This document shows positions 7,970-44,710 of a stretch of DNA of 64,000 nt, piece by piece (positions within the stretch are counted from its first letter, which is position 1; each line of letters starts with the position of its first letter). The position numbers were made by a program, and so were the translations under genes. Under the pieces are notes generated by a model. It did no database searches, was not told where the DNA came from, and saw only the letters and a program-made list of their open reading frames with translations. The stretch comes from Candidatus Omnitrophota bacterium (GTDB taxonomy: Bacteria; Omnitrophota; Gorgyraeia; JABMRG01; JAFGKX01): assembly GCA_043797125.1 (NCBI GenBank), contig JAZDPX010000012.1, positions 24,376 to 88,375 on the forward strand. Reading direction: 5' to 3'.

Positions 7970-9457
7970 ATGAGTATTTTTAAAAAAGGCACCCAGGCAG
8001 TTGGTTTGGATATCAACCAGGAAACAATCACTGTAATTGAGATTGCTAAGTCCAAACAGGGGTTTGTTCTTAAAAATATTGCAGCATGCCCTACGCCTTC
8101 CGGTTCAATAGAAAAAGGCATAATTGTTAACCCTAAAGCGCTTGGTAAAACGATTAAAGAGCTGTTTATCAAAAATAATATAAAATCAAGACAGGCAACT
8201 GTTGCGGTTTGGGGCCCCGGAGCGCTTGTTCATCTAAGCAAAATTCCAGCTATACCTGATAAAGAAATAAAAGAGGCATTAAAATCAGAGGTTTCCCATT
8301 ATATAGTTTTTGCCGGAGGCGAGACTGTTACGGATACATATAAACTTGAAGAGATAATAGATAATGGAGTTAAAAAAACTCAGGTATTGCTTGGTGTGGC
8401 AAAAAAGGATGTTGTTAATTCGTATGTTGAGGCCGCAAAATATGCCGGCCTTGAGTTAATCGCCATAGACATAGGCTGTTTAGCTGTTATGAGGGCATTA
8501 TATTCCAACGCATTGAGGGCTCAAAGCAATGAAGCAGTTGTTTTGGCGACTGTTGAAACGGAAAACACGGTCCTTTCCGTGCTAAGAGGAGGGATTTTAT
8601 CATATTCTTATAATATTGACGCGGGAAGCAGAGATAGGGAATTTGCATCTAAGCTAACTTTTGAGCTTAAGTCTGTTATTAACTATTATCAATCTGAACA
8701 TACAGAGGTTGTCAAAAAAATAGTCATAGCAGGCGAGATACAGAAACTCGGGGCAATAGAAAAGGATTTAAGCGCGGAGTTTGCGGGAATAGGCGTGGAA
8801 AAAGGCCTTGTTGGCGCTGATATTCAATACGACAAAAGCGCTTCTCCATTTTCTGTCAGGGCTGTCGGCCTTGCCATGCTGGCAAAAGGAGTAGGCGAGT
8901 ATCCGGTCAAGATAAACCTTCTTCCGGCAGAAGAGATAAAAATTCAAGAAGCAAAAATCCAGGTGCTTAAATTCTTGATTGCTCTGTGCTTTTTAATATT
9001 TTTAATATTAATATCCTTTGCAGCTATAAAATTATCTATTAAAGCAACAGCGTCAAAGATACTTGTTATTCAACAACAGTTGGAGAAGCCAAGCCCGCAG
9101 CTACAAAGGCTTTTGGGGATTGAGCAGGGCGCAAGAGCATATACAGGCGAAATAGAAAAGCAAAACGGCATTATTGACACGGCGGGTAAAGCTAAGGCAT
9201 CCGATTTGTTAGACGAGATAAGGCGCCTGACGCCAAAAGATGCGCGGCTGATTAAATTAACAAAAAAGGAGAACACGGTAATCTTTAGCGGCGAGGCAGT
9301 TTCGCAGGAAGCGGTATTTAATTTTGTTCGCAGCCTGAAAGGGTCAGGTTATTTTGAAGAAGCAAAGCTTCAAACAGCGGAATCTAAAAGCGATCAGGAA
9401 AAGACTTATATTGATTTTGCCATAATCTGTCAATTAAGTTCCGGAGAGAACCAATGA
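7970..9457 (+). CDS. PilM-PilN fusion protein (actin-like ATPase domain plus PilN TM/periplasmic domain)
   Basis: N-terminal ~350 aa are PilM-like (VGLDINQETITVIEI..., actin-like fold). Then INLLPAEE, the PilN signature INLLP, followed by a TM helix and a coiled-coil segment. Confidence 0.7.
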   Translation: MSIFKKGTQAVGLDINQETITVIEIAKSKQGFVLKNIAACPTPSGSIEKGIIVNPKALGKTIKELFIKNNIKSRQATVAVWGPGALVHLSKIPAIPDKEIKEALKSEVSHYIVFAGGETVTDTYKLEEIIDNGVKKTQVLLGVAKKDVVNSYVEAAKYAGLELIAIDIGCLAVMRALYSNALRAQSNEAVVLATVETENTVLSVLRGGILSYSYNIDAGSRDREFASKLTFELKSVINYYQSEHTEVVKKIVIAGEIQKLGAIEKDLSAEFAGIGVEKGLVGADIQYDKSASPFSVRAVGLAMLAKGVGEYPVKINLLPAEEIKIQEAKIQVLKFLIALCFLIFLILISFAAIKLSIKATASKILVIQQQLEKPSPQLQRLLGIEQGARAYTGEIEKQNGIIDTAGKAKASDLLDEIRRLTPKDARLIKLTKKENTVIFSGEAVSQEAVFNFVRSLKGSGYFEEAKLQTAESKSDQEKTYIDFAIICQLSSGENQ

Positions 9458-10089
9458 CGTTTAATCCGCTTGAAGGCGTTTTAAAGTTCGTGTATAAATT
9501 AAAAATATACCAAAGGCTAATTCTTGCTTTGCTGACAATGTTTTTATGTTGCTATGCCGTGTATAATTCTCTTATTTCAGCGCAGCTTATTAATTTAAAT
9601 TCCATAAAAAAGCAGCTTATGGTGCAGGCAAACCTTATAGAGTCTAAGAGAGAGAAAACAAAACAGCTGCTGCAGCTCGAGGACGGTTATAATAAACTCC
9701 GCGAAGACATAAACAAAAAGAATATGAGATTTTTTAGCGACGAAGAAGCTATTGATTTTTTCAAAAATCTAAACAAATTAGTCGGTCAAGACTCCGGCAA
9801 CGAGCTCATTTTTATAAAGCCGCTGTCGGAAGATACTATCGGTGAATCATTGATAGACGGGGCCAGGTATATTTACAAAAGGTCAGATGTTCAGTTAATT
9901 ATAAGTGGAGGGTTTAGCTCCATATATGAACTTTTCAAGAAATTATCGGATTTTAATAAAGTTATTAGCATAAAGGATTTTGACATAGAACTCAAGCAGA
10001 GTGAAAACATGATGCTTAAATCTGATTTTGTCTTAAGTATATATATTTTAAGCCACAAGGAAGAAAAGACAATTGAAAACAACGCATAA
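9454..10089 (+). CDS. pilO: PilO-like inner-membrane pilus assembly protein
   Basis: N-terminal TM helix, coiled-coil region, position after pilMN. Call rests on architecture and position. Confidence 0.5.
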   Translation: MTFNPLEGVLKFVYKLKIYQRLILALLTMFLCCYAVYNSLISAQLINLNSIKKQLMVQANLIESKREKTKQLLQLEDGYNKLREDINKKNMRFFSDEEAIDFFKNLNKLVGQDSGNELIFIKPLSEDTIGESLIDGARYIYKRSDVQLIISGGFSSIYELFKKLSDFNKVISIKDFDIELKQSENMMLKSDFVLSIYILSHKEEKTIENNA

Positions 10090-10474
10090 AATAAATATTA
10101 GGTATTTAATCATTTTAATCGCCGTAGCAATGTTGGCTTGCGTTGTAAGCTTAGAAGGCGTATATTCGCAGGATACTGCAGAGAAACCCAAAAAGGAAGA
10201 TCTTGCACCCGATATATACGGCAGATACGACCCGTTTGCGCCAATAGGAATGGATTATAACGGTTCATCCGCTAATAAAATGCTGGGCCTTACTTTGGAA
10301 GGCGTGATAACCGGGTCTACAAAACCTCTTGCAATAATAAACAACACAATTGTAAAAGAAACCGACATAATAGAGGGTAAAAAAATTAAAAAGATTCAGA
10401 CAGATAGAATTACTATTGAAGATGAAAACGGCAAGGAACACGAACTTAAACTGTTTAAAGAAGAGGATAAATAG
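10073..10474 (+). CDS. pilP: PilP-like pilus assembly lipoprotein
   Basis: Signal or TM segment. YDPF motif (PilP-type RDPF hallmark) followed by a beta-rich C-terminus LTLEGVITG...AIINNTIV... Confidence 0.5.
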   Translation: MKTTHKINIRYLIILIAVAMLACVVSLEGVYSQDTAEKPKKEDLAPDIYGRYDPFAPIGMDYNGSSANKMLGLTLEGVITGSTKPLAIINNTIVKETDIIEGKKIKKIQTDRITIEDENGKEHELKLFKEEDK

Positions 10475-10485
10475 GGGGAGGGAGC

Positions 10486-10695
10486 ATGTTTATTTTTGGT
10501 TTAATAGGCATAGTAGCATTGGCTTTAGGAATACTGCATTTTACCAGCACGGATACAATATGTAAAATAGATGAAATCGGGAAAAAGGTTATCATTACCA
10601 TGGATAAGATGGTAAAAAAATACCCTAAAAGATTAGGCGTGCTTTACATTATTGCCGCTACTTTCCTGATTTATGTTGGCTTCTTTTTGAAATAA
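10486..10695 (+). CDS. small two-TM membrane protein, hypothetical
   Basis: 69-aa ORF with two hydrophobic helices. 3' end overlaps the convergent gene. No recognisable motif. Confidence 0.3.
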   Translation: MFIFGLIGIVALALGILHFTSTDTICKIDEIGKKVIITMDKMVKKYPKRLGVLYIIAATFLIYVGFFLK

Positions 10696-12785
10696 TTTAA
10701 AGCCTTGTATAGATTCAGCCTTGCCTGTACGTGATTCGGGTTAAGGCGCAGCGCCTTTCTCCAAAATTTAATCGCCTTATCTTGATTTCCGATAGCGTTG
10801 TATATTACCCCGATATTGTTATAAGCAAATGCCGACCCCGAATCAGAGCGTAAGATTGCCCTAAACGCTTTCAGAGAATCATTTATTTTTCCTTTTTCGT
10901 AAAATAAAAGCCCAAGCCTGCTAAAGGCCTCGGTATGATTGGGGTTTGCCTTGACAACTTTTAAGAACTCCTCAATTGCCTTATCGCTTTCGCGCTTTTT
11001 TTCGTATGCAAGCCCGAGGTTATAATGGATAAACGGGCTTTTTTGGTCCGCATTTTTTGCCTCTTCTAATACAGATATGGCCTCATCATACAGGCCGATT
11101 ATTCTTAGGAATTCCCCTTTCTTAAAAAGCGTAAACGGAAACAGCCCCTTTACTGCCTTTTGAGCAGGATATTGTTTAATTACTTCGTAGATATTAGGAT
11201 ATTTATTGATAATATCCCTGTTCGCAAAAGAATTTTTTACAAAGACGCAGGATATCTCGTCAAAAAAGACAAGCCTCCAGTCGCTATTGTTATAAATATA
11301 TTCCAGAAGCGCGTCAGAATCAATGTATATGCGGCTTAAAATTATATAATTTATGTCAAAACCTTTCGTCACCTTGTCAAATTCTTTAGGATGCGATGTT
11401 AAGTCCACGTAGCCTTTGTAGAATTTCGGGCCGTATACTTCGGTTCTGCCGTCGATAAACACCTTTCTTTCAGGGGTAAGCCGAAAGATAAGATAACCGC
11501 CTATTTCGTAGGCATTGAACATATTGCCTTTGATGTTATTTGCCAGGATAAAGCGAACAGCGTCCTTTGGATATTTTGCATCCAAATCCCCAAGCCCGAA
11601 ACTTCGCACTGTTTTTTCCCTGAAGCAATATCTTGGAGATGTGGCAATAAAAGTTAAAGAAAGCATGCCGGCGATAAGACATAGAAGCAGTAGTAATTCT
11701 AAAACCATAGGGGACAGTTTCCCGAACAATTTGGAAAGCGTCTCCCGAACAAATCGGAAAGCGTCTCCGGATTGAGCAGATTCAAAGTTAAGCATGGTAA
11801 TAGGAGCGGTGAGTATGGCAAAATCAATGATATTTCTATTGGCCTTAAACGAAAAGGCCAAAAAAATAGCGTAAATGATAAGGTGCGTAGGATTCAAGCG
11901 CTTGTAATTTAAAACAAAGCCGGCTAAAGATAAAAATATCAGAAGTTTATAATAAGGGTAAGGTTGTAATTTTAAGATATTGTAAATATTAAGAGGCGGC
12001 TGCAGCTCCGTGATGTATTTCATTATAACTTCCTGCCAGCCGCTGTTGTTTATGCCTGTTAATGTCAAAAACGGATACAAAGCCCCGGTTAAGCCGTTTG
12101 GATTTATCAGGCCTGCTAATATGGCTGCCGCTGCAACACGCAGCAGCGTATTAAGTTTTTCTCTTTTCATGCGCTGCAATGCCTCGCCGATTAAATAGGA
12201 GAGTATAAGTATTATCCCCATTAAAGAGCCGCCGTGCAGATTTGTCCAAACCATTTGCAAGACAGGCAGTAAAAAAATTAGTTTCGTATTTTTGTATTTA
12301 AAATTATGCAATATTGAAAAATATATAACAAGGAATAAGGAATTGAACATGAAGGGGCGCTCAAGAAATCTATGTTCTGAAGCCAAAACCGCCACGACCG
12401 TTAAAATCACAGAAACCAAATATAAATTCTTGCGAAAACAAACAGCAAAAACAATAAAAAACGCAGCGCCAAAAACAAGCGCCTTCAAAACCACGATGCC
12501 GCCCAAGCCAAAGCCCCTGAAAATTAAGAAAAGCAAGACATCAGCCAACCACTGATGGTTAACCCATCGATGGCCAGGCACTGTATATGAAAATATATCG
12601 ATTTTTGGGATAAAACCATTGGCTAATATATACTCCCCTGTTTTTAAGTGCCACCAGATGTCAAAATCCCTTATATTTTGAATTAACATGGCAGCTACAA
12701 ACGTAAAAAGCCCTAAAAATACAGCGTATTTCGCGGCCTTTAGCAAGACAGGCAGCCAAGGAAAGAAAAAATTTTGCTTTTTCAT
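10671..12785 (-). CDS. polytopic membrane protein (GT-C/PMT-like N-terminal domain) with C-terminal TPR repeats
   Basis: At least 10 predicted TM helices in the N-terminal 450 aa. The C-terminal 170 aa contain about four TPR units (NLGLAYEKK..., AFSRLGLLFYEKG..., AYNNIGVIYNAIG...). Confidence 0.7.
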   Translation of the reverse strand: MKKQNFFFPWLPVLLKAAKYAVFLGLFTFVAAMLIQNIRDFDIWWHLKTGEYILANGFIPKIDIFSYTVPGHRWVNHQWLADVLLFLIFRGFGLGGIVVLKALVFGAAFFIVFAVCFRKNLYLVSVILTVVAVLASEHRFLERPFMFNSLFLVIYFSILHNFKYKNTKLIFLLPVLQMVWTNLHGGSLMGIILILSYLIGEALQRMKREKLNTLLRVAAAAILAGLINPNGLTGALYPFLTLTGINNSGWQEVIMKYITELQPPLNIYNILKLQPYPYYKLLIFLSLAGFVLNYKRLNPTHLIIYAIFLAFSFKANRNIIDFAILTAPITMLNFESAQSGDAFRFVRETLSKLFGKLSPMVLELLLLLCLIAGMLSLTFIATSPRYCFREKTVRSFGLGDLDAKYPKDAVRFILANNIKGNMFNAYEIGGYLIFRLTPERKVFIDGRTEVYGPKFYKGYVDLTSHPKEFDKVTKGFDINYIILSRIYIDSDALLEYIYNNSDWRLVFFDEISCVFVKNSFANRDIINKYPNIYEVIKQYPAQKAVKGLFPFTLFKKGEFLRIIGLYDEAISVLEEAKNADQKSPFIHYNLGLAYEKKRESDKAIEEFLKVVKANPNHTEAFSRLGLLFYEKGKINDSLKAFRAILRSDSGSAFAYNNIGVIYNAIGNQDKAIKFWRKALRLNPNHVQARLNLYKALNYFKKKPT
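11690..11775. repeat. two tandem copies of a short dispersed repeat (TTTCCCGAACAA...GGAAAGCGTCTC) embedded in-frame in the TPR membrane protein gene
   Basis: gacagtttcccgaacaatttggaaagcgtctcccgaacaaatcggaaagcgtctcc. Its reverse complement matches 34967-35002 in the bio esterase-BioC gene at 31/33 nt. Confidence 0.5.
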
Positions 12786-12892: not shown

Positions 12893-12968
12893 GCCCGCAT
12901 AGCTCAATTGGTAGAGCAGCGCCCTCTTAAGGCGAAGGTTCCAGGTTCGATTCCCGGTGCGGGTACCA
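12893..12968 (+). tRNA. tRNA-Lys (anticodon CUU)
   Basis: Cloverleaf by eye: acceptor GCCCGCA/TGCGGGT, D-arm GCTC/GAGC, anticodon loop CTCTTAA, T-loop TTCGATT, 3' CCA encoded. Confidence 0.9.
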
Positions 12969-13108
12969 TGAACCATTCGACAAAACCTTTGGTTTTGTCT
13001 CAGGTTCATGGCACAGCCATGAAAGTTTTGTCGAATGATGAATGCCCTGTACCCGAGCCCCGATGCTTCGGGGCGAGTGGTTCAGGGCAACCATGCTTGC
13101 TTGTATTC

Positions 13109-13193
13109 GCGGATGTGGCGAAATTGGCAGACGCGTGCGGCTTAGGACCGCATGGAGCAATCCATGGGGGTTCAACTCCCTCCATCCGCACCA
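13109..13193 (+). tRNA. tRNA-Leu (anticodon UAG), long variable arm
   Basis: Acceptor GCGGATG/CATCCGC, anticodon loop CTTAGGA, variable arm TGGAGCAATCCATG, T-loop TTCAACT, CCA encoded. Closely resembles canonical tRNA-Leu. Confidence 0.9.
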
Positions 13194-13232
13194 GCGAATT
13201 TTGCTACGCAAAATTTGTGAAACTAAAAAACG

Positions 13233-13307
13233 CGGGTGTAGCTCAGTTGGTAGAGCATTACGTTGCCAACGTAAATGTCGTCGGTTCGAACCCGATCACC
13301 CGCTCCA
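13233..13307 (+). tRNA. tRNA-Gly (anticodon GCC)
   Basis: Acceptor GCGGGTG/CACCCGC, anticodon stem TTACG/CGTAA with loop TTGCCAA, T-loop TTCGAAC, CCA encoded. Confidence 0.9.
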
Positions 13308-20387: not shown

Positions 20388-21479
20388 ATGGATCCACAAA
20401 ATTATTTAAAGATGATGCTGGATAAGGGGGCTTCAGATCTTTATTTTAAGGTAGGCAGCCCTCCATGCCTTAGGGTAAATGATGAGCTCAAGCTCTGCGA
20501 CGAAAATAGACTCAAACCCGAGGATACGGAAGCTGTCGCTAAGAAGATTATCGGTAAGGAGAAATTCGATGAGTTTATCCAGAAAAGAGAACTTGATGCA
20601 GCTTATAGCGTTTCTGGTGTGGGGAGATTCAGGGTTAATATGTATATACAAAGAGGTACCGTATCAATAACGCTGCGTTCTATCAAAAGCCAAATTTCAT
20701 CTTTTGCCGAATTAAATTTGCCTATAGATATAATGCAGAGGCTTTCCTCCTGCCAGAGGGGCCTTGTATTGATAACAGGGCATGCCGGCAGCGGCAAAAG
20801 CACCACGTTAGCGGCTATCATTGATTATATAAATGAAAATACAGCGAGGAATATAATAACCATAGAAGATCCCATTGAATTTTTACATCGCGATAAAAAA
20901 TCAATAATATCGCAAAGAGAAGTTGCTACAGATACCGATAGCTTCAACGTGGCATTGCGCCATGTTATACGCCAGTCTCCGGATGTGATACTTATCGGCG
21001 AAATGAGGGATTTAGAGAGCATACAGACAGCCATGATGGCGGCTGAGACGGGGCATTTGGTTTTAAGCACACTGCATACTGTTGATACAACCCAGACAAT
21101 CGAGAGGATTATTAATTATTTTCCGACCCACATGCATCATCAGATAAGGATGCAGTTCGCGCTTCTTTTCGCGGGTGTTATCTCAATGAGGCTTATTCCG
21201 CGTTGCGACAAACCCGGGCGCGTTCCCGCATGCGAAATAATGCTGCCGTCTCCCACGGTAAAAAAGATGATACACGAAGGCAGGATAAATGAGATAATAG
21301 ACGCCATTCAGGACGGCGCCATCTTTAGGATGCAGTCTTTCAATCAGGCGCTTATTGACTGGGTTAAGAAAGGCGTCGTAAGCAAAGAATCCGCTCTTGA
21401 AAACGCCAGTAACCCCGATGAGCTAAGGCTGGAATTTGCCGATATTTTTTCCGGCAAAAAAACACATGAAAAACAGTAA
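20388..21479 (+). CDS. pilT: PilT-family type IV pilus retraction ATPase (variant Walker A GHAGSGKST)
   Basis: T2SSE core with Asp and His boxes. Length and organisation are PilT-like. Confidence 0.8.
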   Translation: MDPQNYLKMMLDKGASDLYFKVGSPPCLRVNDELKLCDENRLKPEDTEAVAKKIIGKEKFDEFIQKRELDAAYSVSGVGRFRVNMYIQRGTVSITLRSIKSQISSFAELNLPIDIMQRLSSCQRGLVLITGHAGSGKSTTLAAIIDYINENTARNIITIEDPIEFLHRDKKSIISQREVATDTDSFNVALRHVIRQSPDVILIGEMRDLESIQTAMMAAETGHLVLSTLHTVDTTQTIERIINYFPTHMHHQIRMQFALLFAGVISMRLIPRCDKPGRVPACEIMLPSPTVKKMIHEGRINEIIDAIQDGAIFRMQSFNQALIDWVKKGVVSKESALENASNPDELRLEFADIFSGKKTHEKQ

Positions 21480-21493
21480 GAGAGGAGTTTGAA

Positions 21494-22543
21494 ATGCTGG
21501 ATATTAAGGATCTTTTAAGGCACGCTTCGGAAAAAGGCGCTTCTGATTTGCATATTACGCAGGACATGCCACCTATGTTGAGAATAGACGGAGAATTGCA
21601 CACAACAGCATTTGATATTTTGAACAGAGAGCAGACCAAAAAAATGGTTTATGGTATTTTAAATGATAAGCAGAAAGTGAGGTTCGAGGAAAATCTAGAA
21701 CTGGATCTTTCCCTTTATGTGCCGGATTTGTGCCGTTTTAGGGTAAACGTGCACATGCAAAAAGGCAGCGTCGAGGCGGCATTCAGGGTTATACCGAATA
21801 CCGTGCAGACCGTAGAAAAACTGGGCCTTCCCCGCATAGTATCTGAATTGGCAAGGCTGCCAAACGGGCTTGTGCTGGTAACAGGGCCCACAGGAGTAGG
21901 CAAGAGCACAACGCTCGCTTCTATGGTGGACCAGGTTAACAATGAAAGGCACTGCCATATTATCAGCGTAGAAGATCCGATAGAATATGTGCATCAGAAT
22001 AAAAACAGCATAGTGAAGCAAAGAGAGGTGGGTATTGATACCTTGTCTTTTTCCAACGCGCTAAAGCACGCGCTCAGGCAGGACCCTAACGTTATATTGG
22101 TAGGCGAAATGAGGGATCTGGAAACCATATCTACGGCAATAACAGCTGCTGAAACAGGGCATCTAGTGTTAAGCACTCTTCATACGCCTGATGCCCCGCA
22201 GACCATAGACAGGCTTATAGATATATTTCCTCCTCATCAGCAGGAACAGATAAAAGTGCAGCTATCAGGCTGTTTTCAGGGAGTTATATGCCAGCAGCTG
22301 CTTGTAAGAAAAGATGGCAGGGGAAGGATTCCTTCGTGCGAGATAATGACAGGTACATCAGCGGTCAGAAGCCTTATACGGGAGCACAAGACAGAACAGC
22401 TTATGACAGTTATACAGACAAGCGGCAAGCACGGCATGATAACGATGGATAAATCCATAAAAAAGCTGTATCTAGACGGCCTGATAGATCTTGAGACAGC
22501 GCATGATAAAATAAAAGACAAGGCAGAGTTTGAAAAGTTATGA
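21494..22543 (+). CDS. pilT: PilT/PilU-family twitching motility ATPase
   Basis: Walker A GPTGVGKSTT, Asp and His boxes. The AVRSLIRE motif near the C-terminus resembles the PilT AIRNLIRE signature. Confidence 0.85.
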   Translation: MLDIKDLLRHASEKGASDLHITQDMPPMLRIDGELHTTAFDILNREQTKKMVYGILNDKQKVRFEENLELDLSLYVPDLCRFRVNVHMQKGSVEAAFRVIPNTVQTVEKLGLPRIVSELARLPNGLVLVTGPTGVGKSTTLASMVDQVNNERHCHIISVEDPIEYVHQNKNSIVKQREVGIDTLSFSNALKHALRQDPNVILVGEMRDLETISTAITAAETGHLVLSTLHTPDAPQTIDRLIDIFPPHQQEQIKVQLSGCFQGVICQQLLVRKDGRGRIPSCEIMTGTSAVRSLIREHKTEQLMTVIQTSGKHGMITMDKSIKKLYLDGLIDLETAHDKIKDKAEFEKL

Positions 22544-30506: not shown

Positions 30507-30593
30507 GGCCTGTTGCAATTTGCTCCCCCCGATGTCATTCCCGCGAAACTTGTCCCCGTGAAAACGGGGAGCGGGGATCCATAGTTCGGCTTT

Positions 30594-30820
30594 TGCAATG
30601 TTTGGTGCTAAATCCTTTTAGCTTTTGCGTGCCTGCCTTCGCTTGTCGCTCGCAAAAAGGATCGTTTCGCCTTCGGCGAAAGGCGCTTTTTGCTCGCTGT
30701 GGCAAAAATCGCTCACTTCTCGCTTAGGTTTTCGCGATTTTTGACAGTCGCTCCGGCAGGACACGCAAAAGCTTTTTTAATGTACCTCGCATTGCAGAAA
30801 CCTCACTTAGATGAATTAGG
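30594..30820. mobile_element. MITE-like highly structured repeat element, copy 1
   Basis: Terminal inverted repeats GGCTTTTGCAATG...CATTGCAGAAACC. Internal nested palindromes. A second copy sits at 36438-36621 with near-identical termini and both end in ATTAGG. No ORF. Confidence 0.5.
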
Positions 30821-33184: not shown

Positions 33185-34326
33185 ACCAGTTTTTAAAAGA
33201 GGCAGAAGAAAACGGCCTTTTAAGAATCCTGCACCCGGCAGATTACAGAAGAAACGGCGTGATTTGCATTGAAGGCAGAGAATATGCTGATTTTTCATCC
33301 AATGATTATCTTGGCTTATCGCATCATGCTTATATAAAAAGCGCCTCATGCAATATTATAGAAAAACTCGGCGCCTCATCAAGCGCATCCAGATTATTAA
33401 GCGGAAGCTTAACGCTTCACAGCGAACTTGAAGACAGAACCGCCTCTTTTAAAGGCAAGGAAGCAGCTCTTATTTTTAATAGCGGCTATCAGGCAAACAT
33501 AGGGATAATAAGTTCGTTGTGCTCAAGGGGCGATGTTGTCTTCACCGACAAGCTAAGCCACGCGAGCATAATCGATGGGGTATTGTTATCCGGGGCGAAA
33601 CTTTTTAGGTTTCTGCATAATGACGCAGGGAGTCTTGAATCTTTATTAAAAACGCACAGGCAAAAATTTAAAAACGCCCTGATAATAACAGAAACAGTTT
33701 TCAGCATGGATGGGGACATAGCGCCTTTGAAAGACTTAGTAAGCATAAAAGAAGAATACAACTGCCAAATCATGATTGATGAAGCTCATGCAACAGGCGT
33801 ATTCGGCGATAGTGGCTCAGGGATTGCGGAAAAGGAGAATTTAACAGATTCCATAGATTTGATTATGGGGACATTCAGCAAGGCCCTCGGAAGCTTCGGT
33901 GCCTATTTGGCTTGCTCAAAAAATATAAAAGATTATTTAATAAATACATCAAGAAGCTTTATATATTCCACCGCATTGCCACCCTCGGTTATAGCGGCAA
34001 ATTTGGCCAGCCTTGAGTTAATTAAAAAGGAGCCGTTTAGAAGGCGGGAACTTTTGCAGAAAGCGTCATATTTTAGAAATGAATTATCAAGCCTCAGGCT
34101 TACAGTAAAAGGCTCTTCGCAAATAATACCTTTAATTGTTAAGGACAGCCGTAAGGCAGTAAAAATCAGCAGCCTCCTTAAAGAGAAAGGCTTCTGGGCG
34201 CCTGCCATAAGGCCGCCTACGGTCCCTGCCAATGAAGCGCGAATAAGGTTTTCCTTAAGTTATTGCCACACAAAAGATGTATTGGATAGGCTTATCAATG
34301 ATATCTATGAAATCAACGAATTTTAA
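33172..34326 (+). CDS. bioF: 8-amino-7-oxononanoate synthase
   Basis: Class II aminotransferase fold. PLP lysine in TFSKALGSFG. FSSNDYLGLS. Confidence 0.85.
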   Translation: MEQINQFLKEAEENGLLRILHPADYRRNGVICIEGREYADFSSNDYLGLSHHAYIKSASCNIIEKLGASSSASRLLSGSLTLHSELEDRTASFKGKEAALIFNSGYQANIGIISSLCSRGDVVFTDKLSHASIIDGVLLSGAKLFRFLHNDAGSLESLLKTHRQKFKNALIITETVFSMDGDIAPLKDLVSIKEEYNCQIMIDEAHATGVFGDSGSGIAEKENLTDSIDLIMGTFSKALGSFGAYLACSKNIKDYLINTSRSFIYSTALPPSVIAANLASLELIKKEPFRRRELLQKASYFRNELSSLRLTVKGSSQIIPLIVKDSRKAVKISSLLKEKGFWAPAIRPPTVPANEARIRFSLSYCHTKDVLDRLINDIYEINEF

Positions 34327-34354
34327 ATACATAAACAGGAATAAAGAGAGCACA

Positions 34355-35848
34355 ATGGTTTTTGTGCCCGGCTGGGCAACTGATTACAGGATTTTTGATT
34401 CGCTAAAGCAGGATTGCAACTGCCTGATCCCTGAGAGTTTTCACCCGTTCGATTTTAAAGAGCGTCTTTTGAATGCGTTAAAAAAAAATAGCATAGAAAG
34501 GCTCTCGCTTTTTGGATTTTCGCTCGGTGGTTTTGTCGCAGCGGAATTTGCTTTTGAATTTCCAAAGCTGGTAGATGAGCTTGTGTTGGTAGGCATAAGA
34601 AAAAGATACGACCCCTTGGCGATAGAGACGATAAAACAAAAGCTTCTAAAAAACAAAAACGCCTTTTTGTACACATTTTACAGTCAGTGTTTTTATAATA
34701 AAGACGCCTTTTCCTTTTTTAAGAAGAATTTGCTCAAAATTTATTGCGATTGTATGGAGCTGGATTACCTGCTTGAAACTTTGGAGTATCTAAAAAATTC
34801 TAGAATAACATCCCAGATGCTGAAAGCAATAAAGAGCGTAAAAATCATGCACGGAGAATTTGACGCAATAGCCCCGATAGAAGAGGCCAGGGATATAGCA
34901 CGCAGCTTAAACAATGCAGAGTTCGCATGCCTACAAAACGAAGGCCACATCCCCTACAGCTGGAGACGCTTACCAAATTGTTCGGGAAAGTGTCCCAAAA
35001 TTGTTCGGGAAAGTGTTCCCGTCTTGTTCGGGAAACAGTTTCCTGAACAGATCAGAAAGCGTTTCCCGAGCAAGTTGGAAAACGTCTCGATGAACAAAGA
35101 AGCTATAAGAAGGAATTTTTCGAAATACGCAGGATATTATGATCAATACTGCAATATACAGAATGCCTGCGCGCAAGAACTCATAGGAAAATTAAACGGC
35201 GCTCATTTCAATAATATTCTTGATATCGGCTGCGGAACAGGAAACTACACTAAATTTTTAAGGGAAAAATTTCCAAAGGCCGCAATAAAGGCGATAGACA
35301 TCTCGGAAAACATGATAGAAATAGCGAAGCTTAAATTATCGGGCGATAATATAGAATTTATCGTTGCCGATGCGGAGACAATAGACCTTGACGCTGGGTT
35401 TGACCTTTTAAGCTCAAACGCTTCCTTGCAATGGTTTGAAAACCTAGAAAGCGCTCTTATAAAATATAAGGAATTACTGGCAGCAGGAGGCGTCGCGCTG
35501 TTTTCTGTATTCGGGCCCAACACTTTTCATGAGCTGGATGAGTCCCTGAAGCAGGTATTCGGCAAAAGTAAAAGCATAAGTTCCTATAATTTTCTGGAAA
35601 AAAGAAAAATAGAGGCTGTCTTAAGCGGACTTTTTAATGAAATCCAGATAGAGCAAAAGATATACACCGAAAAACACGCCTCTTTGACAGACCTGCTTAA
35701 AAAAATAAAATATACAGGCACAAGAGGCAATGGCGCTCGTACGCTTTGGAGCATTGGCACATTAAGCAGGCTTGAAGACGTATATAAAAAGAAATTCAAC
35801 GATATAACAGCAACATACGAGGTGTTTTTTTGCAAAGCGGTAAAATGA
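34355..35848 (+). CDS. fusion of pimeloyl-ACP methyl ester esterase (BioG/BioH-type alpha/beta hydrolase) and malonyl-ACP O-methyltransferase BioC
   Basis: N-terminal ~215 aa carry the GFSLGG nucleophile elbow and His near the end. C-terminal half carries SAM motif ILDIGCGTGNYT and BioC-like sequence. Start set at ATG 34355 (RBS AAAGAGAG). Confidence 0.75.
   Translation: MVFVPGWATDYRIFDSLKQDCNCLIPESFHPFDFKERLLNALKKNSIERLSLFGFSLGGFVAAEFAFEFPKLVDELVLVGIRKRYDPLAIETIKQKLLKNKNAFLYTFYSQCFYNKDAFSFFKKNLLKIYCDCMELDYLLETLEYLKNSRITSQMLKAIKSVKIMHGEFDAIAPIEEARDIARSLNNAEFACLQNEGHIPYSWRRLPNCSGKCPKIVRESVPVLFGKQFPEQIRKRFPSKLENVSMNKEAIRRNFSKYAGYYDQYCNIQNACAQELIGKLNGAHFNNILDIGCGTGNYTKFLREKFPKAAIKAIDISENMIEIAKLKLSGDNIEFIVADAETIDLDAGFDLLSSNASLQWFENLESALIKYKELLAAGGVALFSVFGPNTFHELDESLKQVFGKSKSISSYNFLEKRKIEAVLSGLFNEIQIEQKIYTEKHASLTDLLKKIKYTGTRGNGARTLWSIGTLSRLEDVYKKKFNDITATYEVFFCKAVK
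34967..35090. repeat. intragenic array of a ~23-nt repeat (TTGTTCGGGAAAGTGTCCC; three direct copies plus one inverted) in the esterase-BioC linker
   Basis: ccaaattgttcgggaaagtgtccc / aaaattgttcgggaaagtgttccc / gtcttgttcgggaaacagtttcc / tttcccgagcaagttggaaaacgtctc. Each copy is read in a different codon phase. Confidence 0.6.
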
Positions 35849-36465
35849 AAGCTATTTTTGTTACAGGCACCGGAACAGGCGTAGGAAAGACCACTGTCTG
35901 CAGACTGCTGGAAAGATTCCTTAAGACAAATGGATACAGGACGATAACGCAGAAGTGGATCTGCACAGGCAGTAAAACCCTTCCCATAAATAAAGATAAG
36001 CAGCCTTACACATTTAAATTTCCTGCCTCGCCTCATCTTGCGGCGCGGCTCGAACGAAAATGTGTAAGTAAAAAAATAATAAAACAAAGTTTCAGGAATT
36101 TGCAGAGGCAGTTTGATTTTGTAATAGTAGAAGGCATAGGTGGGGCGCTTGTGCCTTTTAATAATAAGCAACTGGTGATAGATATTGCCAAAGAACTGAA
36201 GCTGCCAGTTTTGGTAGTAATAGATAATAAACTCGGCGCCATTAACCATGCCCTATTAACTATCGAGGCCTTGCGGCGAAGAAAGATGAACATAATAGGC
36301 CTCATCTTCAATAACCGCCGCAAGAGTCAGAACAAAATAATCTTGAATGATAATGTTGATATAATAAAAAGGCTGACAGGGAAGCGGGTGCTGGGAGTAC
36401 TGCCATTCATTCAACGGCGGGCCCTATCTCACCGTTGGTTCGGTTTTTGCAATGCTTGGTGCTGA
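35830..36465 (+). CDS. bioD: dethiobiotin synthetase
   Basis: P-loop FVTGTGTGVGKTTV. Length about 210 aa. The last ~10 codons and the stop lie inside the MITE-like element. Confidence 0.85.
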   Translation: MQSGKMKAIFVTGTGTGVGKTTVCRLLERFLKTNGYRTITQKWICTGSKTLPINKDKQPYTFKFPASPHLAARLERKCVSKKIIKQSFRNLQRQFDFVIVEGIGGALVPFNNKQLVIDIAKELKLPVLVVIDNKLGAINHALLTIEALRRRKMNIIGLIFNNRRKSQNKIILNDNVDIIKRLTGKRVLGVLPFIQRRALSHRWFGFCNAWC

Positions 36466-36621
36466 AATTTTTCGCCGTCCTTTTGGACTTACGGCTTGGT
36501 CGCTTACCCTATAATAAAGAATCTTAGCCGCTTCCGCGCCGTAAGTCCTAAAAGGACATTTGGCGAAAAATTTCTAATGCACCTTCGCATTGCAAAAACC
36601 TCACCAATGGTAAATATTAGG
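36438..36621. mobile_element. MITE-like structured repeat element, copy 2 (overlaps bioD 3' end)
   Basis: Termini GGTTTTTGCAATG...CATTGCAAAAACC. Internal 28-bp stem TTTTTCGCCGTCCTTTTGGACTTACGGC/GCCGTAAGTCCTAAAAGGACATTTGGCGAAAAA. Confidence 0.5.
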
Positions 36622-36945
36622 CCGAGGGGTGTTACTTTAGAATTCGCAACTGATTAAAGGCTTAAGGCGTTGCCGAAAAAACAATAGCGGAGGATTTGGT
36701 ATACTTGCTTAGGAGTAGGCAAAACTTAGGAGTGCCTGCCTACCGTCAGGCAGGCAGGCTGGGGACACCGAAACTGAACCCTTGTATAGTAGGGCCGGCT
36801 TAAGCCTGCCCTACTATCAGTAGGTGAATTTCGGAGGGGCCCCAGCCGAACGACTATAGTTTTGCCCAAATCCGAAGCGTGTTTTTGAGGCAATGCCTTA
36901 AGCCTATTAATGTAGCTCAAATTGCAAAAGCCTCAACTTAGGTGA
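36590..36945. repeat. left arm of long inverted repeat flanking bioA
   Basis: Reverse complement matches 38297-38607 at roughly 85-90% identity by eye, e.g. cctcaaaaacacgcttcggatttgggcaaaactatagtcgttcgg and ctgcctgcctgacggtaggcaggcact. Confidence 0.7.
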
Positions 36946-36949
36946 TAAT

Positions 36950-38296
36950 ATGAATACGTGGATAGAGAAGGATCTCAAGTACGTTTGGCATCCGTATACC
37001 CAAATGAAGGATTGCAAGAAACTCCCGCCTATTCTGATCGAGCGGGCAAAGGGTATTAAGCTCTACGATAACAAAGGTAATTTTTACTACGATACCATCT
37101 CAAGCTGGTGGTGCAATGTCCACGGGCATAACCATCCCAAAGTAAAAGCGGCGATTAAAAGGCAGCTGGATTTATTTGAGCACGTGATGTTTGCCGGCTT
37201 TACGCATAAGCCCGCCATTATGCTGGCAGAAGAACTTATCCGCATTTCTCCCGAATCCCTGACAAAGGTGTTTTTTTCAGATAACGGCTCAACAGCTGTT
37301 GAGACAGCGCTTAAAATGTCTTTTCAATATTGGCATAACACAGGCAAAAGCAAAAAGACAAAATTTCTTTCCTTAGATTACGGGTATCACGGCGACACAA
37401 TAGCGACGATGAGCGTAAGCAGCGTTGATTTGTTCAATATAAAATATAAAGCGCTTATGTTTAACTCGTACAAGGCGAGTTCGCCTTACTGCTATCGCTG
37501 CCCCGTAGGAAAAAATCGCAATAATTGCAGTATAGAGTGCATAGGTTCGCTGGAAACCGCGCTTAAAAATCATAACAGCGAAATAGCCGCTGTTATATTA
37601 GAGCCACTGGTTATGGCTGCAGGCGGAATGATTATATATCCTAAAGAATATCTGGAAAAGGCAGGCGCACTTGCTGAAAAATACAATGTCCACCTGATAT
37701 TAGACGAAGTTGCAACAGGCTTTGGCAGGACAGGAAAGATGTTTGCCTGCGATTATACGGATATACAACCTGACTTTATGTGCCTGTCTAAAGGCATAAC
37801 AGCGGGTTTTCTTGCGATGGGCGCAACGTTGACTACGGATAAGATTTACAATGCCTTTTATGCGGATTATCAGAAGAAAAAGACATTTTATCACGGCCAT
37901 ACCTATACCGCTAACCCTTTATGCTGCGCAGCAGCATTAGCGAGCCTTGGTGTGTTCCGCAAAGAGTGCACTTTAGACAAAATAGACAAACTTATTCCAG
38001 TTTTTCATAAAAAGCTGGAAGGTTTTAAGAATCTTCCAGCTGTCGGAGACATCCGCTACATAGGCATGATAGGCGCTCTGGAATTAGTTAAGGATAAAAA
38101 TACCAAAGAGGCATTTGGCTTTAAAGAAAGAATAGGCCAAAAGATTTATGCCGAAGGCTTAAAAAGTGGCATTTTGTTAAGGCCGCTTGGAAATATAATT
38201 TATTTCTTCTTGCCTTTATGTATTGCAGAGCGCGAGATTAAACTCATTTTAGAAAAGTCCTATAATATACTTTCCAGAATCAGCAAATCTATTTAA
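36950..38296 (+). CDS. bioA: adenosylmethionine-8-amino-7-oxononanoate aminotransferase
   Basis: Class III aminotransferase. N-terminal YVWHPYTQM. PLP-lysine region typical of BioA. Confidence 0.9.
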   Translation: MNTWIEKDLKYVWHPYTQMKDCKKLPPILIERAKGIKLYDNKGNFYYDTISSWWCNVHGHNHPKVKAAIKRQLDLFEHVMFAGFTHKPAIMLAEELIRISPESLTKVFFSDNGSTAVETALKMSFQYWHNTGKSKKTKFLSLDYGYHGDTIATMSVSSVDLFNIKYKALMFNSYKASSPYCYRCPVGKNRNNCSIECIGSLETALKNHNSEIAAVILEPLVMAAGGMIIYPKEYLEKAGALAEKYNVHLILDEVATGFGRTGKMFACDYTDIQPDFMCLSKGITAGFLAMGATLTTDKIYNAFYADYQKKKTFYHGHTYTANPLCCAAALASLGVFRKECTLDKIDKLIPVFHKKLEGFKNLPAVGDIRYIGMIGALELVKDKNTKEAFGFKERIGQKIYAEGLKSGILLRPLGNIIYFFLPLCIAEREIKLILEKSYNILSRISKSI

Positions 38297-38607
38297 GGCT
38301 TAAGGCATAGCCTCAAAAACACGCTTCAGATTTGGGCAAAACTATAGTCGTTCGGCCGGGGCCCCTCCGAATTCACCTACAGATGGTAGCGCAGGCTTAA
38401 GCCTGCGCTACCATCCAAGGGTTCATTCGGTGTCCCCGGCCTGCCTGCCTGACGGTAGGCAGGCACTGCTATGTTTTGCCTACAACCAAAACAAGCGAGC
38501 CAAATCTTCCGCTATTGTTTTTTCGGCAATGTCTTAAGCCTTCAAAGCGGAGACATTGTCAATAAGTTAGGCTTTTGCAATGTGAGGCGCATATGTTTAA
38601 GGCCTGT
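38297..38607. repeat. right arm of long inverted repeat flanking bioA
   Basis: Inverted copy of 36590-36945. Contains hairpin GGTAGCGCA-GGCTTAAGCC-TGCGCTACC. Confidence 0.7.
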
Positions 38608-44678: not shown

Positions 44679-44710
44679 GACGTAGCGGAGGCTTAAGCCT
44701 CCGCTACGTC
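44679..44710. repeat. perfect hairpin GACGTAGCGGA-GGCTTAAGCC-TCCGCTACGTC (GGCTTAAGCC REP-like family)
   Basis: Same GGCTTAAGCC core and GTAGSGC arms as hairpins at about 36788-36816 and 38378-38406. Confidence 0.6.

Follow-up and report, generated by a model that had tools for sequence, protein, structure and literature searches.

Introduction

TA-flanked MITEs (miniature transposable elements with inverted repeats), such as Correia/NEMIS of Neisseria and RUP of pneumococcus, are linked to IS630/Tc1-mariner-type transposition. Short repeats are also described from inside genes. Rickettsia palindromic elements (RPEs) have integrated in-frame dozens of times in metabolic genes (PMC10969869) and, like one class of repetitive extragenic palindromes (REPs), end in CGTC (PMC3733652). 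REPs tagged by GTAG or by CGTC occur inside open reading frames (ORFs) as singles, dimers or clusters coding for 20–82 amino acids, and in two Xanthomonas species recB carries different REPs at roughly one position (PMC3733652). The CGTC REPs are without a dedicated transposase; their families 1–4 consist of an 8–9-bp stem, a 4–5-nt loop and, at one end, a CGTC (or TGTC/CCTC) tag that is unpaired, and the study that describes them does not report CGTC repeats for the Planctomycetes-Verrucomicrobia-Chlamydiae (PVC) group (PMC3733652, Di Nocera et al. 2013). Here we describe a short palindromic repeat found at two places in a 64,000-nt stretch of a Candidatus Omnitrophota bacterium (assembly GCA_043797125.1, contig JAZDPX010000012.1, positions 24,376–88,375 of the forward strand), called the window in what follows: within the gene of a membrane protein with tetratricopeptide repeats (TPR; site 1) and within that of a fused esterase-BioC protein (site 2).

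With a probability of roughly 0.7, we regard both loci as copies of a non-autonomous, palindromic, MITE/REP-like family of dispersed repeats of Omnitrophota and Planctomycetota that became fixed in-frame where two sites were permissive. Almost all that is known of both phyla comes from metagenome bins, and full-text literature searches returned neither this family nor an account of similar repeats in Omnitrophota.

Results

The repeat within the window

With up to three mismatches, the 27-mer GAGACGCTTTCCAAATTGTTCGGGAAA has four matches in the window, where 100 shuffles give an expectation of 0.00 (11718, 11741, 34963 and 35062 on the minus strand), and TTGTTCGGGAAA, with up to one mismatch, has seven where 0.55 are expected; shorter cores are likewise enriched. 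Sites 1 and 2 share a 35-nt stretch that is 94% identical in two unrelated genes, and a core profile search of the window recovered these two sites and nothing else. The features concerned are the following.

10671–12785, minus strand: host gene 1, an ORF for a polytopic membrane protein of 704 aa with C-terminal TPR repeats
11745–11767, minus strand: first sub-unit of site 1 (GAGACGCTTTCCGATTTGTTCGG), read as (G)DAFRFVR
11722–11744, minus strand: second sub-unit of site 1 (GAGACGCTTTCCAAATTGTTCGG), 21/23 identical to the first, read as ETLSKLFG, one phase off
11708–11721, minus strand: head of the next sub-unit of site 1 (GAAACTGTCCCC..), completing a conserved core module of ~38 nt
34277–35848, plus strand: host gene 2, a fused alpha/beta-hydrolase (BioH-like, aa ~55–227) and BioC methyltransferase (aa 280–521)
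34963–35088, plus strand: complete element of site 2, a palindrome of 126 nt (42 codons) with 12-nt terminal inverted repeats
34963–35037, plus strand: left arm of site 2, three forward sub-units (34963, 34986, 35009) followed by the beginning of a fourth, as far as the centre of symmetry
35038–35088, minus strand: right arm of site 2, two inverted sub-units, complementary to the left arm and ending in ..GGAAAACGTCTC

Site 1: a partial copy in the TPR membrane protein gene

Read on the sense (minus) strand, 11708–11768 consists of GAGACGCTTTCCGATTTGTTCGG, GAGACGCTTTCCAAATTGTTCGG and GAAACTGTCCCC in succession (in a wider reading tccGGAGACGCTTTCCGATTTGTTCGG, GAGACGCTTTCCAAATTGTTCGG and GAAACTGTCCCCtatg), that is, two 23-nt units and the head of a third. 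Tandem Repeats Finder reports a period of 23 with 2.1 copies and 92% matches at 11720–11768. The translation in the ORF is S-GDAFRFVR-ETLSKLFGKLS-P, in the protein context ..SGDAFRFVRETLSKLFGKLSP.., and as a period of 23 is not divisible by 3, the units are necessarily read in different phases. A preliminary description of this DNA had noted these two near-identical units in different frames, and both the translation and Tandem Repeats Finder bear it out; it had located the repeats correctly in the two genes, but their extent is corrected here to 11708–11768 and 34963–35088.

The core model matches site 1 at 11744–11708 in an nhmmer search (E = 1.7e-12). No inverted partner arm follows the head of the third unit, so that site 1 holds a single element end only, and its fold shows no significant structure (z = -1.5). 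Moreover, the sub-units within other copies of the family are far more diverged than the two near-identical units found here. Site 1 is one partial copy of the element in which the first sub-unit is duplicated locally, and not two inserted copies. The duplication of 23 nt would be recent and probably due to slippage.

The residues encoded by the element belong to a hypervariable loop between conserved motifs, ahead of a hydrophobic helix. The closest orthologues of the host protein are 46–52% identical. The corresponding loops of the orthologues are unrelated in sequence to the site 1 segment, as protein and as DNA, and four orthologue loci of ~20 kb (L043, L044, L029 and L030) contain no family copy; the segment is therefore lineage-specific. 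An ancestral protein motif, the outcome that would have spoken against a repeat of DNA, is thus not borne out by the comparison that the preliminary description had proposed: the orthologues carry neither the peptide nor the repeat. Here as well as at site 2, orthologues can be aligned with either flank of the element, so neither locus is an assembly join.

As to its surroundings, a cluster of three tRNA genes (12893–13304) lies on the opposite strand, ~110 nt upstream of where the TPR membrane protein gene starts. This gene is also syntenic with pilus/type II secretion-like genes (PilM/N/O, T2SS E/F, prepilins) when 9454–10695 of the window is compared with L043 and L044, the two closest orthologue loci, which suggests a conserved functional neighbourhood for an otherwise uncharacterised protein.

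Site 2: a complete palindrome in the esterase-BioC linker

Site 2 comprises five 23-nt units, three forward and two inverted, bounded by GAGACGCTTACC and GGAAAACGTCTC, and forms a hairpin whose folding energy is -62.8 kcal/mol (z = -6.4). The recurrence of the unit in this gene, as noted earlier, is confirmed. Between them, the three forward units of this site use every one of the three frames (NCSGKC, KIVRESV and VLFGKQF), and this is the clearest evidence for a DNA repeat and not a protein repeat.

The host gene belongs to a bioF / bioH-C / bioD / bioA cluster, and its BioC part scores above the NCBIfam cut-off. The element corresponds to aa 230–271 of the protein, exactly the interdomain linker, and supplies 42 of the 46 codons of this linker. 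One fused homologue (P0123, 38% identity) has a linker of 16 aa and no insert, another (P0122, 49% identity) a linker of 49 aa with unrelated sequence. Since two other fused homologues exist, the esterase-BioC fusion is older than the element, and the net gain of ~30 aa over the short form of P0123 supports an insertion at site 2. The left flank of the element is TG within a TGG codon, where the usual TA would give an in-frame TAG; this would fit a change from TA to TG once the element was inserted.

The linker DNA of P0122 (L029 10672–10746, in the metagenome-assembled genome (MAG) GCA_030605095.1) is also a near-perfect palindrome, with 35-nt arms that are 91% complementary around a 5-nt loop (fold z = -10). 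It is read in-frame as ..EPFAISISTCPRKGDRLNGKSQTVQ.. and is the sole copy in 21.5 kb. It was considered as a diverged member of the present family, but its local alignment scores lie within the shuffle null and it is an independent insert. As no relationship between the two palindromes is detectable, the esterase-BioC linker has gained palindromic DNA independently in two lineages.

A dispersed family in two phyla

We scanned 185,579 species-representative genomes for GARACGYTTTCCNNNTTGYTCGG and obtained 28 loci. Seventeen of these extend to a conserved core of 38–41 nt, (T)TA GAGACGYTTTCC N4 TTGTTCGGGA MNGTGTMCCC, and all seventeen belong either to Omnitrophota (9 loci in 5 MAGs) or to Planctomycetota (8 loci in 3 MAGs). 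In the other 11, from unrelated taxa, the match is confined to the 23 searched bases; some 9 chance matches were estimated, and we read these loci as such. A tighter pattern yielded 12 further copies in JGI metagenome contigs. The conserved end of the element is GAGACGYTTTCC-N4-TTGTTCGGGA followed by a GAMAGTGTMCCC box; the GAGACGYTTTCC and TTGTTCGGGA blocks are invariant across the two phyla whereas the neighbouring positions are variable. The 23-mer is thus a sub-repeat inside a larger element of modular build, whose core measures ~38 nt: the preliminary description was right about the repeat but had taken the sub-repeat for the dispersed unit itself.

The element comes in two forms, solo modules of ~38–65 nt and full palindromes with both terminal inverted repeats (TIRs). 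The latter measure 82–143 nt, which places them among small gene-less elements (below ~300 bp and without coding capacity of their own), and they are bounded by GAGACG...CGTCTC, mostly beside TA or TTA. Each arm is built from two or three direct sub-units of ~23 nt. TIRs of the type GAGACGYTTTCC ... GGAARRCGTCTC, with at most two mismatches per 12-mer, delimit 11 full copies, including 34963–35088 of the window. Outside the window, 17 of 28 element ends are preceded by TA against a background of 5.7% (10-fold), 14 of 28 by TTA, and three loci (L008, L014 and L031) have TA on both sides. Most copies are located between ORFs, typically of co-directional genes, at no consistent position relative to gene starts, and single MAGs may hold several of them (at least 7 in CAZOGI, at least 4 in JBFZAD). 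The genes next to the copies share no recurring protein family. Stop codons in the six frames of 12 copies number 52 against 119 expected from shuffles, intergenic copies being poor in stops too; the size of this effect is approximate, as the copies are related by descent and mononucleotide shuffles were used. Thus, a dispersed, gene-less, TIR-bounded, TA-associated and stop-poor palindromic family exists in two phyla, and in the window two of its copies are in-frame within ORFs, at positions where orthologues vary freely, and they are predicted to be translated. That the repeat is one of nucleotides and not a duplicated protein motif, as the preliminary description had argued, is upheld by the different frames, by the mostly intergenic copies elsewhere and by a peptide without protein relatives.

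With regard to structure, the solo module as single-stranded DNA (ssDNA) can form a CTTTCC/GGAAAG stem-loop in 8 of 10 copies, significantly stable in 2 of 10. At the gathering threshold, the Rfam 15 models find three tRNAs in the window and nothing else, the best score at the element being E = 0.39. Two regularities were tried and abandoned. The length of full copies seemed always to be a multiple of 3 from the first six (96–126 nt), which copies of 82, 97, 115 and 143 nt do not follow, and homogenisation of the arms within elements is unsupported, arm identity being 0.71 within and 0.70 between elements.

In the Planctomycetales MAG CAZOGI (loci L001, L002, L010 and L011), solo copies of ~60 nt have TTA before and TTAA or TTTAA after them in 4 of 6 cases, which could reflect a TA/TTA target duplication for the solo form. 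The same MAG has a second shared motif, CTTGTGTCATGTG.CTTGTGTCAAGTCT, 30–60 nt downstream of several solo copies.

Origin of the two copies and alternative explanations

In the explanation that we favour, copies would be mobilised in trans by a transposase, and those that land in-frame at structurally permissive positions would persist, their sequence rarely introducing stops. A complete copy of 126 nt would so have turned into the linker that joins esterase and BioC domains, and a partial one into part of an inter-helix loop of the TPR membrane protein. Mobility may follow a double-strand mechanism of the TIR/DDE type or a hairpin mechanism of the Y1 type.

Several observations weigh against this explanation. 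The loop of host protein 1 is 53 aa long, compared with a median of 47 (range 35–65) among 53 orthologues and 51 in the nearest of them, so that it is only 2–6 aa longer than theirs, yet the repeat codes for ~20 aa; a plain addition of 60 nt does not fit site 1. None of the element ends of the window is flanked by TA. The TTGTTCGG-type end is present on both arms of site 2, whereas the partner arm is without TTGTTCGG in 9 full copies outside the window; site 2 is thus an atypical head-to-head form, and the asymmetry of the other copies is partly one of ascertainment because the scan pattern required the TTGTTCGG motif on one arm. In the loci examined, with flanks of 8 kb, neither a transposase nor an autonomous partner was seen, and no empty site was found in the databases, because the nearest orthologues of the host proteins are only 49–52% identical. 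Finally, for the source genome, the count of copies and of those inside ORFs covers the 64-kb window.

The insertion supposed in the preliminary description is therefore supported for site 2, with its gain of ~30 aa, but not in its simple form for site 1. There, an insertion may have been accompanied by loss of older loop codons, the loop may have been overwritten in a conversion-like process, or it may have turned over rapidly. Among the rival explanations, ectopic gene conversion or template switching at site 1, in which ~60 nt from another copy (e.g. site 2) replaced loop-coding DNA, survives best but is in our view unlikely. It would account for a loop that exceeds the nearest orthologue's by only 2 aa and the median by 6 aa, for the missing second arm and TA flank, and for the 94% identity to site 2 over 35 nt. 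However, no recognisable homology exists outside the repeat to seed a conversion, and solo half-elements of similar size are common elsewhere, so that a truncated or solo insertion with a small deletion fits equally well.

It is less probable still that the palindromes are kept for a useful hairpin in mRNA or DNA, be it for ribosome pausing at a domain boundary, uncoupled expression of BioC, where an ATG comes directly after the element of site 2 (35090), or stabilising or processing of operon transcripts. The very stable fold of site 2, the unrelated palindrome at the same linker in P0122 (35-bp arms), and the intergenic copies lying mostly between co-directional genes, as REPs do, would all suit a hairpin with a function. 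On the other hand, site 1 is without significant structure, the linker of the orthologue P0123 holds no insert, and a covariation analysis of full copies, whose variable length made them align poorly, found a compensatory change in 1 pair only. Moreover, repeated insertion is accounted for by a permissive linker with no need of a function, in the way of the REPs found at the same recB site of two Xanthomonas species. A more far-reaching proposal, to which we give about as little weight, is that the core of 38 nt, with its invariant GAGACGYTTTCC and TTGTTCGGGA blocks shared at ~85% or more between low-GC Omnitrophota and high-GC Planctomycetota, might serve an undescribed transposase or ssDNA-binding system spanning both phyla as its recognition module, and that palindromes at domain boundaries (twice independently in the esterase-BioC linker) might be selected for a role in translation or folding instead of being just tolerated.

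Very improbable is the idea that the units are phased binding sites of a DNA-binding protein of the host (a regulator or nucleoid protein) and not parts of a mobile element. The constancy of TTGTTCGGGA and GAGACGYTTTCC across two phyla amid variable neighbours and the regular phasing of ~23 nt would agree with it, but the loci are dispersed and unrelated, the copies are delimited by TIRs with enriched TA flanks, their position relative to gene starts is inconsistent and some of them are inside coding sequence. As to proteins, an exhaustive HMMER search with the 47-aa peptide of site 2 against 1.84 billion representatives returned two spurious tandem-repeat proteins only, and a word-indexed search with a composite element peptide gave 0 candidates and is uninformative. 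A duplicated protein motif or chance similarity, in favour of which there is only a superficial likeness of ETLSKLFGK-type peptides, is refuted by the frame analysis, the units being read in different frames, with a chance expectation of 0, no peptide homologues and unrelated orthologue loops.

Other repeats in the window

Two inverted copies of ~250 nt, 89% identical (36654–36905 and 38296–38545), flank bioA (36950–38296) exactly; they are full of internal palindromes and contain no transposase. They were considered as an autonomous insertion sequence with the ends of the present element, but are unrelated in sequence to the 23-nt family. Three palindromes of 26 nt, GTAG-NNNN-GGCTTAAGCC-NNNN-CTAC, are located at 36789–36814, 38386–38411 and 44682–44707, where 0 are expected by chance. 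Two of them are perfect, their variable positions change complementarily between copies (GCGC/GCGC, GCGG/CCGC), and they begin with GTAG, the classical REP tag; a similar TAGGGGAGGCTTAAGCCTCCCCTA is found next to the copy of the element in L024. A third dispersed repeat, also short, is GTTCGGYTTTTGCAATG.TTGGTGCT (30584–30612, 36438–36466 and 38566–38594); at 36438 it overlaps the bioD ORF at the 3' end and supplies the last residues of that ORF (..WFGFCNAWC). The adjacent stretches 20750–21121 and 21857–22228 share 65% DNA identity over ~370 nt, which probably reflects tandem paralogous genes.

Discussion

The analysis adds a repeat family, absent from Rfam, for Omnitrophota and Planctomycetota, and extends selfish DNA of the RPE type, with its predicted translation, to these two phyla. 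Such elements distort or inflate the annotation of proteins, here by a 42-residue linker in a biotin-synthesis fusion and by ~20 residues in the loop of a membrane protein; they can also mislead alignments and seed misassemblies of MAGs. The core motif offers a simple handle for cataloguing copies and for seeking the mobilising enzyme.

Comparison with known systems

With the TA-flanked MITEs of the Correia/NEMIS and RUP type the present family has in common a length of 80–150 nt, terminal inverted repeats, a TA that is often found on both borders, the potential for a transcript hairpin and the lack of coding capacity. It differs from them in that no parent insertion sequence or transposase was found and in that TA is present at ~60% of the ends, none of these in the window; several direct sub-repeats per arm are also atypical for those families.

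The likeness to CGTC REPs concerns short stem-loop modules with a CGTC-containing terminus, arranged solo, as inverted dimers or in clusters, and mostly located between co-directional or convergent genes, with some intragenic cases and with no dedicated transposase; another parallel is that unrelated repeats of this kind can be found at one site of orthologous genes, as in recB. The predicted stem of the present family is however 6–10 bp long and encloses a conserved loop of ~10 nt containing TTGTTCG, which lies outside the stem/loop definition of the CGTC families. The present copies end in CGTCTC or CGTTTC, and the CGT bases would be paired inside the predicted stem; the tag of CGTC REPs is unpaired.

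The feature that defines RPEs, a palindromic repeat in-frame within ORFs, is found at both sites, with orthologues aligning on either side. Like RPEs, and judged by description and not by sequence, the present elements are palindromes of ~100–150 nt that are open in several frames and contain no gene of their own, and they are (here by prediction) translated, adding residues to unrelated housekeeping proteins at positions that permit it. The hosts, on the other hand, belong to other phyla and are not obligate intracellular bacteria as far as records show; two in-ORF copies are present in 64 kb, most members elsewhere being intergenic, and the internal sub-repeats of 23 nt do not appear in the published RPE descriptions consulted. 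Thus, the repeat described here is a new family of a familiar kind, that of the Rickettsia RPEs and intragenic REPs, and not a new phenomenon; what goes beyond the ordinary is only the conservation of its core across two phyla and the recurrence of palindromic inserts in the esterase-BioC linker.

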